Position numbers and translations under genes: made by a program. 64,000 nt of DNA from a virus. How positions within the stretch are numbered: the stretch's first letter is position 1; each line of letters begins with the position of its first letter. The stretch lies in the IMG/VR virus record IMGVR_UViG_3300009130_000002; one strand, 5' to 3'. The notes under the pieces were generated by a model that saw only the letters and a list, made by a program, of their open reading frames with translations, was not told where the DNA came from and searched no databases. Of this stretch, positions 37,751 to 38,578 are shown in pieces.

Positions 37751-37908
37751 TGTTTGAGGGTCTACCACTAACTATCTTTCATGCTACAGTGGTATTGCTT
37801 GGGGGAGTTGTGTTACTCGGCTTTAAATTTCTTGTCGATGTAACACGCTCTCCCAGACCCAGACCTATTAAAGTAAGGAGGAACCCTAATGAGCGCAAAA
37901 GAATGTGA
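37750..37908 (+). CDS. Small single-TM protein (52 aa; not in the ORF track)
   Basis: The ATG shares its A with the upstream TAA. MFEGLPLTIFHATVVLLGGVVLLGFKFLVDVTRSPRPRPIKVRRNPNERKRM has a hydrophobic helix and a basic tail. Confidence 0.55.
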   Translation: MFEGLPLTIFHATVVLLGGVVLLGFKFLVDVTRSPRPRPIKVRRNPNERKRM

Positions 37909-37984
37909 ATGTAGTTGCGTTACTACTGAATGTTGCAAGGCAGGAACTTGCGAATGTTGTTCAGAAGTATGCTGCTGCGAATAG
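37889..37984 (+). CDS. Metallothionein-like Cys-rich peptide (31 aa, 11 Cys; not in the ORF track)
   Basis: MSAKECECSCVTTECCKAGTCECCSEVCCCE*. SD AAGGAGG at 37875-37881, 7 nt before the ATG. No aromatic residues. Stop is 3 nt before the next ATG. Confidence 0.75.
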   Translation: MSAKECECSCVTTECCKAGTCECCSEVCCCE

Positions 37985-37987
37985 GGA

Positions 37988-38578
37988 ATGGCAAAGAAAC
38001 CATTCGTCGCCCATAGACTAAAAATAAATACTACAGAGATTTCTTCCGATAGAGATCTTTCCCCTAGTATCAATTTCTCAAACAAAATTACAGGAACTTA
38101 CCCGGATGATGGCTTTAAAGTTGGTTACGATAGTGACGACTGCAAGGCCTTTATTCATATAGATGAGTGCGCAGGATTTAAGATCCACATACATCATAAG
38201 GATAGATTTGTAATATCTGATAAAGGTAATATAGGTATAGGGAGACAGCCGACAAACTGTCTACTTCATATAGGAGGTAGCTTAGGCTTGCAATACAAAG
38301 GAATAGATGACAGCCTATATACAATAGAAGGAAAAGACTGTATCATAGGTATAGAGAAGGTTAAGCATAATAACGTAGAGATTACGATACCTAACTCAGA
38401 GAATATAAAAGGTCGAGTTCTTATAATAAAAGACGAAGAAGGACAGGCCAGTCAATATCCAATAACAATAAGAGCAGAAACTCCAAGCTCAATCAATAAT
38501 AAGTTTGAAGTTCATATACAAGAAGACTATGGTAGTCTAACTGTATATTGCAATGGGAGTGACTGGTTCAAAATATAA
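37988..38578 (+). CDS. Short fibre-like virion protein (196 aa)
   Basis: GNIGIGRQPTNCLLHIGGS motif and a C-terminal ITIP...GRVLIIKDE.G.A...ITI...YGSLTVY.NG..WF fibre-tip-like domain. Confidence 0.6.
   Translation: MAKKPFVAHRLKINTTEISSDRDLSPSINFSNKITGTYPDDGFKVGYDSDDCKAFIHIDECAGFKIHIHHKDRFVISDKGNIGIGRQPTNCLLHIGGSLGLQYKGIDDSLYTIEGKDCIIGIEKVKHNNVEITIPNSENIKGRVLIIKDEEGQASQYPITIRAETPSSINNKFEVHIQEDYGSLTVYCNGSDWFKI

Follow-up and report, generated by a model that had tools for sequence, protein, structure and literature searches.

What does a 31-codon open reading frame (ORF) with eleven cysteine codons do in the late structural operon of a marine phage? The ORF lies in a 64,000-nucleotide (64-kb) stretch of DNA from an uncultured marine phage (IMG/VR record IMGVR_UViG_3300009130_000002), hereafter the window, and an initial annotation, made from the sequence alone, had proposed it as an unannotated metallothionein-like micro-gene. 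We found that it belongs to a family of eleven-cysteine peptides present in many marine bacteria, where the peptide gene is almost always paired with an ArsR-family regulator. Judging from sequence, we consider it probable, at roughly 0.6, that the micro-gene product binds metal through its thiolates in the manner of a metallothionein and that the phage makes it without regulation.

An eleven-cysteine micro-gene under selection

All the features that had drawn attention to the micro-gene were recovered when the sequence was re-read: a Shine-Dalgarno motif (SD; AAGGAGG) 7 nt upstream of the ATG, a stop 3 nt before the next ATG (the TAG ends at 37984 and the next gene starts at 37988), 11 cysteines among 31 residues (35%), and no histidine, phenylalanine, tyrosine or tryptophan. 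The translation has the cysteine skeleton CxCxC-x4-CC-x4-CxCC-x3-CCC and no signal peptide. Its cysteine content is the highest of the 853 ORFs in the window, the others reaching at most 23%, and 100 shuffles of the window that preserved dinucleotides gave maxima of 5–8 cysteines per open 31-residue stretch, never 9 or more. A chance origin of the micro-gene is thus excluded. Its GC content at third codon positions (GC3, 0.29) equals that of the flanking phage genes, indicating that the micro-gene is an old resident rather than a recent import.

Ten distinct related phage variants were collected, anchored on the synteny of the downstream 196-aa gene. The micro-gene was present in five of them (the window, L006, L340, L341 and L344); in each, the ORF is 96 nt long including the stop, encodes 11 cysteines and is preceded by AAGGAGG 7 nt upstream. 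Conservation of the cysteine positions and the SD, part of the check that the initial annotation had proposed, holds across these five variants. Ten of the 11 cysteine columns were invariant versus none of the 20 others (Fisher p = 2.5e-7), and the eleventh cysteine was displaced by one position in two variants. The cysteine codons alternate between TGT and TGC. Between the window and L006 there are nine non-synonymous codon changes, all among the 18 non-cysteine codons and none in the 11 cysteine codons. The spacer residues evolve much faster than the neighbouring proteins, the 196-aa protein included (76–93% identity among relatives). Because the cysteine columns, the ORF length and the SD are kept while the other columns vary, these results show that the cysteine positions are under strong purifying selection, as expected of a translated peptide in which the cysteines matter.

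The micro-gene was absent from the other five variants (L001/L008, L005, L007, L342 and L343). Pairwise DNA alignment with L001 revealed a single clean gap of about 100 nt, located between the SD-like region and the ATG of the 196-aa gene; spacer, ORF and 3-nt gap are all missing, and the others were alike. A frameshifted or non-conserved ORF in relatives had been named as an outcome that would speak against a gene; where the micro-gene is missing it is cleanly absent, and no frameshifted remnant was found in the cassette-minus variants. A clean indel of about 100 nt in half of the variants identifies the micro-gene as an accessory cassette. The proposal of a phage metallothionein-like micro-gene is thus strengthened in that the gene has the marks of translation, was left unannotated and belongs to a family with an ArsR link, but it has to be amended in that the gene is accessory rather than core, occurring in about half of the related variants. 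Presence of the micro-gene tracked one allele type of the upstream ORF, which encodes a predicted transmembrane (TM) helix, whereas the downstream gene grouped differently; this mismatch places a recombination boundary at the cassette. Presence or absence at the level of strains suggests a niche-dependent benefit.

We drew the related contigs from IMG/VR and from seawater metagenomes, Tara among them. An identical genotype over 241 nt around the micro-gene was found in eight further contigs from other samples, and in each of these the micro-gene had gone uncalled by annotation.

Bacterial relatives and their ArsR-family regulators

Conventional searches with the window peptide gave no match, whether by tblastn against 50,697 GenBank phage records, by comparison with Pfam (E up to 1), NCBIfam and PHROGs, by phmmer against 1.84 billion representative proteins, or by look-up of the exact peptide for encoding contigs. 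Searches of IMG/VR with DNA patterns built on the window's own spacer residues, or on the N-terminal eight cysteines, were likewise empty, and a DNA pattern of the cysteine skeleton with free spacers was discarded because its hits were mostly (TGY)n simple repeats and spurious antisense matches. The effective pattern consisted of the C-terminal CC-x4-CxCC-x3-CCC, with spacer codons limited to those with a non-T first base, which excludes (TGY)n repeats. Applied to IMG/VR, this skeleton search returned 12 loci, five of which encode a 30-residue sister peptide with 10 cysteines in T4-like contigs. Among bacteria and archaea, sampled at one genome per species, 109 skeleton loci were obtained against a chance expectation of less than one. 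Eighty-three of these proved to be genuine ORFs of 30–39 residues, nearly all with a GGAG-type ribosome-binding site.

Eleven cysteines are encoded by about 76 of the 83 bacterial ORFs, 10 by six and 12 by one. The N-terminal CxCxC-x4 is common to nearly all bacterial members and the window peptide, even though it lay outside the search pattern, and an alignment of 59 members showed nine invariant and two nearly invariant cysteine columns. The members come from marine metagenome-assembled genomes (MAGs), single-amplified genomes and isolates of at least eight phyla; they include Pseudomonadales, Halieaceae, Alteromonas, Woeseiaceae, Nitrosomonadales and Planctomycetota as well as Myxococcota, Bradymonadia, Nitrospinota, Chloroflexota and cyanobacteria (Leptolyngbya, Phormidesmis and a Synechococcus MAG). 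When a hidden Markov model (HMM) was trained on bacterial members alone, the window peptide received 28.1 bits, with a composition correction of 36 bits already applied. Among 2000 composition-matched shuffles the top score was 7.6 bits, and the other window ORFs reached at most 7.1 bits, indicating that the window peptide is a family member by arrangement and not just by composition.

None of the 59 members matched a family in Pfam or NCBIfam (PF02069 included), the only hits being chance ones to a cysteine-rich LSR stretch (E = 0.05), and a family profile search of PDB sequences returned nothing. Nine of nine bacterial peptides tested were absent from a collection of 15 billion proteins, which indicates that gene callers miss them. 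No paper describing the family was found in the literature searched.

We then clustered the neighbours of the 83 bacterial loci and called recurrent those present in at least three. The dominant neighbour was an ArsR-family regulator of about 100 residues (HTH_5), directly upstream and on the same strand. Using a dedicated ArsR HMM, we detected the regulator upstream of 74 of the 83 peptide genes; among the nine others, three have an upstream sequence too short for a decision. Only 9–49 nt separate the two genes, and this co-directional spacing indicates that they form an operon. The regulators (loci L141–L249) constitute an ArsR subfamily that is highly conserved across phyla, with six invariant cysteines arranged as CxC followed by CxCxCC, the latter on the helix where the metal site of classical ArsR proteins is located. 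Other recurrent neighbours were COG0523/CobW zinc-chaperone-type GTPases (10 loci), MerC-like membrane proteins (6) and ZnuA (3); two zinc enzymes, M19 dipeptidase and threonyl-tRNA synthetase, also recur beside the peptide loci. No ars gene, isc/suf gene or maturase for ribosomally synthesized and post-translationally modified peptides (RiPPs) was among the recurrent neighbours. Genes farther from the regulator–peptide pair vary between loci. In a few bacterial lineages, and in every phage copy, the peptide gene has no ArsR gene with it, and a six-frame search of the window with the ArsR HMM was negative (best E = 3.3). The window phage has the peptide half of the bacterial ArsR–peptide cassette and lacks the regulator.

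A proposed metallothionein-like function and its alternatives

In sequence the peptide resembles the metallothionein class: it is small, rich in cysteine and free of histidine and aromatic residues, and its CxC, CC and CCC motifs are conserved while its spacers vary. The genetic link to metal homeostasis is present for the bacterial homologs and absent beside the phage copy. To our knowledge, bacterial metallothioneins are regarded as rare and comprise few families (SmtA/BmtA, PflQ2 MT and MymT). In the cyanobacterial modules SmtB–SmtA, BxmR–BmtA and AzuR–NmtA, an ArsR/SmtB-family repressor controls a bacterial metallothionein (PF02069); the smtB–smtA gene pair is divergent. Control of a metallothionein by an ArsR/SmtB repressor has been described for AzuR–NmtA (PMC8790569), and the bacterial metallothioneins described so far are about twice as long as the eleven-cysteine peptide and use histidine and hydrophobic residues (PMC10612145). 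The eleven-cysteine family resembles the SmtB–SmtA type in that a small cysteine-rich gene is paired with an ArsR/SmtB-family regulator in most bacterial loci, with zinc-homeostasis genes nearby, and in the cytosolic metal buffering that would be its function. It differs from SmtA/BmtA in its length (30 versus about 55 residues), its CC/CCC runs and its lack of histidine ligands and of an aromatic or hydrophobic core, and PF02069 matched 0 of the 59 members. Unlike smtB–smtA, the peptide gene and its regulator are co-directional and closely spaced; unlike SmtB, the linked regulator subfamily has six conserved cysteines, and the phage copy has no regulator.

The vertebrate metallothionein α-domain has about 31 residues and 11 cysteines and forms an M(II)4Cys11 cluster. 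The window peptide shares its length, its number of cysteines, its lack of histidine and aromatic residues, and its CxC and CC motifs. By contrast, the cysteine spacing differs, no homology is detectable (the PDB profile search was empty), and the α-domain belongs to a two-domain protein whereas the eleven-cysteine peptide is a free-standing gene product. The Cd-metallothioneins of ciliates (Tetrahymena) are long and modular and contain CCC and CxCC motifs; the Cu(I) metallothioneins of the Neurospora type are single-domain fungal peptides of 25–26 residues with 7 cysteines. The likeness to eukaryotic metallothioneins that had been seen in the CC/CCC clustering can be placed more closely: in its CCC and CxCC motifs the family is like the ciliate proteins, and in being very small and single-domain it is like the fungal ones, but both of these groups are eukaryotic, and no sequence match was found. 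The initial annotation knew of no characterised phage metallothionein, in agreement with the literature searched, in which 'metallothionein' is mentioned only in passing among candidate viral auxiliary genes (PMC13317609, PMC12917443). We regard the eleven-cysteine family as new in sequence but probably of a functional kind already described; its style of regulation in bacteria is known, and the phage copy is unregulated and accessory.

According to the mechanism we propose, the peptide would be cytoplasmic, and its eleven cysteine thiolates would enclose a few soft metal ions in a cluster. Going by other domains with 11 cysteines, the expected load would be about four Zn(II) or Cd(II), or more Cu(I), per peptide; about four divalent ions are predicted because the size and cysteine count match those of the vertebrate α-domain. 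The gene would originate from the bacterial gene pair of ArsR-family sensor and 30-residue peptide, which many marine bacteria possess, and the phage would have kept the peptide gene alone. Since the micro-gene has no ArsR, lies in the late structural operon and carries its own strong SD, the peptide would be translated late in infection irrespective of cellular metal levels; inside the infected cell it would then act as a metal buffer or sink. The phage may benefit by zinc supply, for instance to its Zn/Fe–S proteins as the initial annotation had suggested, by protection from copper or cadmium, or by interference with host metal sensing. AlphaFold2 modelled the peptide as a coil containing one turn of helix (pLDDT 72.7). 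Such a model agrees with folding that depends on metal, though it is no proof of binding, and a Foldseek search of PDB with this model found no match.

A more far-reaching version is that an undescribed bacterial two-gene metal module, consisting of a six-cysteine ArsR sensor and an 11-cysteine metallothionein in at least eight phyla, had its peptide gene captured alone by phages at least twice, and that the phages express it unregulated to re-set the trace-metal economy of the host. Behind it stand the two phage forms, with 11 cysteines in the window lineage and 10 cysteines beside iscU in T4-like phages; we rate this version a little short of an even chance.

Several points weigh against a metallothionein-like function. 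Metal binding, the identity and number of the ions, and the benefit to the phage are inferred. The phage copy has no ArsR or other metal gene adjacent to it, its context is structural, and half of the related variants do without it. ArsR-family regulators also sense arsenite, persulfide and redox state, and therefore the ArsR linkage alone does not fix the ligand. The 10-cysteine sister peptide that follows IscU in a narrow T4-like clade could point to iron–sulfur (Fe–S) chemistry. Finally, no similarity in sequence or fold to any described metallothionein was detected with Pfam, NCBIfam, the PDB profile search or Foldseek.

The close pairing in bacteria could instead mean that the peptide is a partner of the ArsR-type sensor, that is, a detachable metal-sensing or anti-repressor module, and that the phage copy switches the host metal regulon via the host ArsR. 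The peptide follows the regulator by 9–49 nt in 74 of the 83 loci, and because the genes downstream vary while the pair persists, the conserved unit is the regulator plus the peptide. However, autoregulated ArsR/SmtB operons normally carry the effector downstream, as in SmtB–SmtA and AzuR–NmtA (PMC8790569), and orphan peptides in several bacterial lineages and in all phage copies argue for an effector. Eleven invariant cysteines per 30 residues also far exceed what a sensory site needs, and we regard a sensor partner as improbable. A role in Fe–S or sulfur trafficking, in which the peptide would hold an Fe–S cluster, iron or sulfane sulfur, or guard the IscU scaffold from mis-metallation, is similarly unlikely. 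Such a role is suggested by four T4-like contigs (L129, L133, L134 and L139) in which the 10-cysteine sister starts 19–140 nt after iscU on the same strand (NifU_N, 2.6e-52), and by the several cysteine-cluster proteins that the window phage encodes, for example a Cas4-like nuclease. Yet only 2 of 80 iscU-bearing viral loci contain the peptide, all within one narrow clade, no isc/suf gene lies beside the bacterial members, and no iscU was found in the 64 kb of the window; at this frequency, a general link between IscU and the peptide was dropped. An apparent IscU–peptide fusion (P0006, 162 aa; ENA seawater contig L330, 167–655) turned out to be an artefact of reading TAG as Gln, since translation with table 11 meets a stop between the two genes. 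TAG-recoded gene calls of this sort could mislead fusion-based inference elsewhere.

The setting of the phage copies raises the idea of a virion- or baseplate-associated, metal-stabilised structural peptide, or of an assembly factor for the tail-fibre module. Within the late structural operon, the micro-gene has LamG fibre genes on one side and a baseplate-like gene on the other, the T4-like sister gene is also found among baseplate genes (T4_baseplate, gp53), and presence is linked to one allele of the adjoining small membrane-protein gene. We give this idea little credence, because the 83 bacterial homologs are found near regulator and metal-homeostasis genes and away from any phage genes, and because half of the close relatives, whose neighbouring baseplate-like protein is 76–93% identical, lack the micro-gene, which is unexpected for a structural part. 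As a short, cysteine-rich ORF that ends 3 nt before the next start, the micro-gene could also encode a RiPP precursor or a translated leader that couples downstream translation; the chances of either are very slim. The initial annotation had held that a maturase elsewhere in the genome would make the product a modified-peptide precursor. None (radical-SAM, YcaO, lanthipeptide or other) was detected by Pfam scans of window ORFs of at least 90 aa, except three unscanned giant structural ORFs, in a scan that covered the 64-kb window and not the phage genome beyond; the recurrent bacterial neighbours likewise include none, and the peptide has no leader/core architecture. As to a leader, the genes downstream of the bacterial members are heterogeneous and often convergent, cassette-minus relatives have the 196-aa gene directly behind the TM ORF, and retention of 11 cysteines with free variation elsewhere points to a peptide product and not to the mere act of translation.

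Annotation has overlooked a compact 11-cysteine family that extends across many marine phyla and, with few exceptions, comes with an ArsR-type sensor of its own; ORFs of fewer than about 35 codons can hold conserved, mobile functions. If the peptides bind metal, the buffering of zinc, cadmium and copper by ocean microbes would have to be re-estimated, and the bacterial pair would be a small natural sensor-plus-chelator module. Phages would then carry metal-buffering genes as strain-variable accessories, which could be compared with trace-metal gradients (Tara, GEOTRACES). If, in addition, the peptide gene was indeed captured from the bacterial module, this would be the first phage metallothionein family of traceable bacterial origin.

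The phage window around the micro-gene

No close GenBank phage was found for the window, and host assignment yielded no host. Its plus-strand block encodes giant LamG-type fibre proteins, baseplate-like proteins, the Cas4-like nuclease, a DnaG–DnaB primase-helicase, a lysin amidase and a sigma-factor-like protein, and its minus-strand block encodes a class II ribonucleotide reductase, PhoH, a MazG-like protein, a split DnaE (PHP domain and polymerase core) and RecA. Within the late structural operon, the micro-gene is placed between a small membrane-protein gene and a baseplate-like gene (Table 1). The small membrane protein, encoded by the TM ORF that overlaps the first 20 nt of the micro-gene, has an N-terminal part of 35 residues conserved across all relatives. 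A scan for promoters and terminators around the micro-gene gave nothing specific. A 90-codon antisense ORF (37813–38085) was rejected as a gene, since three conserved genes of the plus strand overlap it and nothing independent speaks in its favour.

Table 1. Positions of the micro-gene, its neighbours and other features of the window
Feature	Position	Strand	Remarks
Volactin-like protein, 332 aa	2492-3490	+	Full-length match to archaeal actin family Volactin (PF25216, E = 1e-64, 219 bits)
MopE-repeat protein, 619 aa	4102-5961	-	Five Cys-rich 'Cu-binding_MopE' putative metal-binding repeats (PF11617, E = 5e-38)
LamG/concanavalin-like fibre or baseplate protein, 356 aa	36680-37750	+	PF13385 7.9e-19; PHROG baseplate-wedge and virion-structural matches
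52-codon ORF with one predicted TM helix	37750-37908	+	Starts in the stop of the LamG gene (TAATG); ends 20 nt into the micro-gene
Shine-Dalgarno AAGGAGG	37875-37881	+	7-nt spacer to the micro-gene ATG; inside the 3' end of the upstream TM ORF
Presence/absence cassette (approximate)	37882-37987	+	Spacer, micro-gene and 3-nt gap; missing from half of the related phage variants
Micro-gene	37889-37984	+	31 codons plus TAG; 11 Cys; member of the eleven-cysteine micro-metallothionein-like family
196-aa gene	37988-38578	+	Weak match to baseplate-protein PHROG phrog_20556 (E = 3.3e-6)
PD-(D/E)XK nuclease, 300 aa	38963-39865	+	C-terminal Cas4/AddB-type Cys cluster; 62% identity in distant relatives
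DNA polymerase III alpha, 879 aa	56115-58754	-	Core/fingers/HhH/OB
DNA polymerase III alpha, 370 aa	59201-60313	-	Separate PHP ORF

Other differences in gene content were seen in this region. The LamG gene encodes 356 aa in the window versus 145 aa in the closest IMG/VR relative (L001, 3432–3869); the shorter version keeps the N- and C-terminal ends and lacks the LamG domain, a domain-sized indel beside that of the micro-gene. In two more distant relatives, L343 (981–1421) and L344 (2041–2475), a dCMP/cytidine deaminase-like gene (PF00383, PF14437) is inserted between a 102-aa gene and the nuclease gene, and the window has no such insertion, which marks another accessory-gene slot in the same region. 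The nuclease itself, with its cysteine cluster, is probably an Fe–S nuclease.

Farther from the micro-gene, the MopE-repeat protein is a second metal-related feature of the same phage; its gene is preceded by that of a trypsin-like protease and followed, on the same strand, by a staphylococcal-nuclease homolog. The two ORFs of the split DNA polymerase III alpha are separated by a 180-aa ORF of no known family. The full-length match to Volactin indicates an actin-type fold in a marine phage, which may be worth a separate look.

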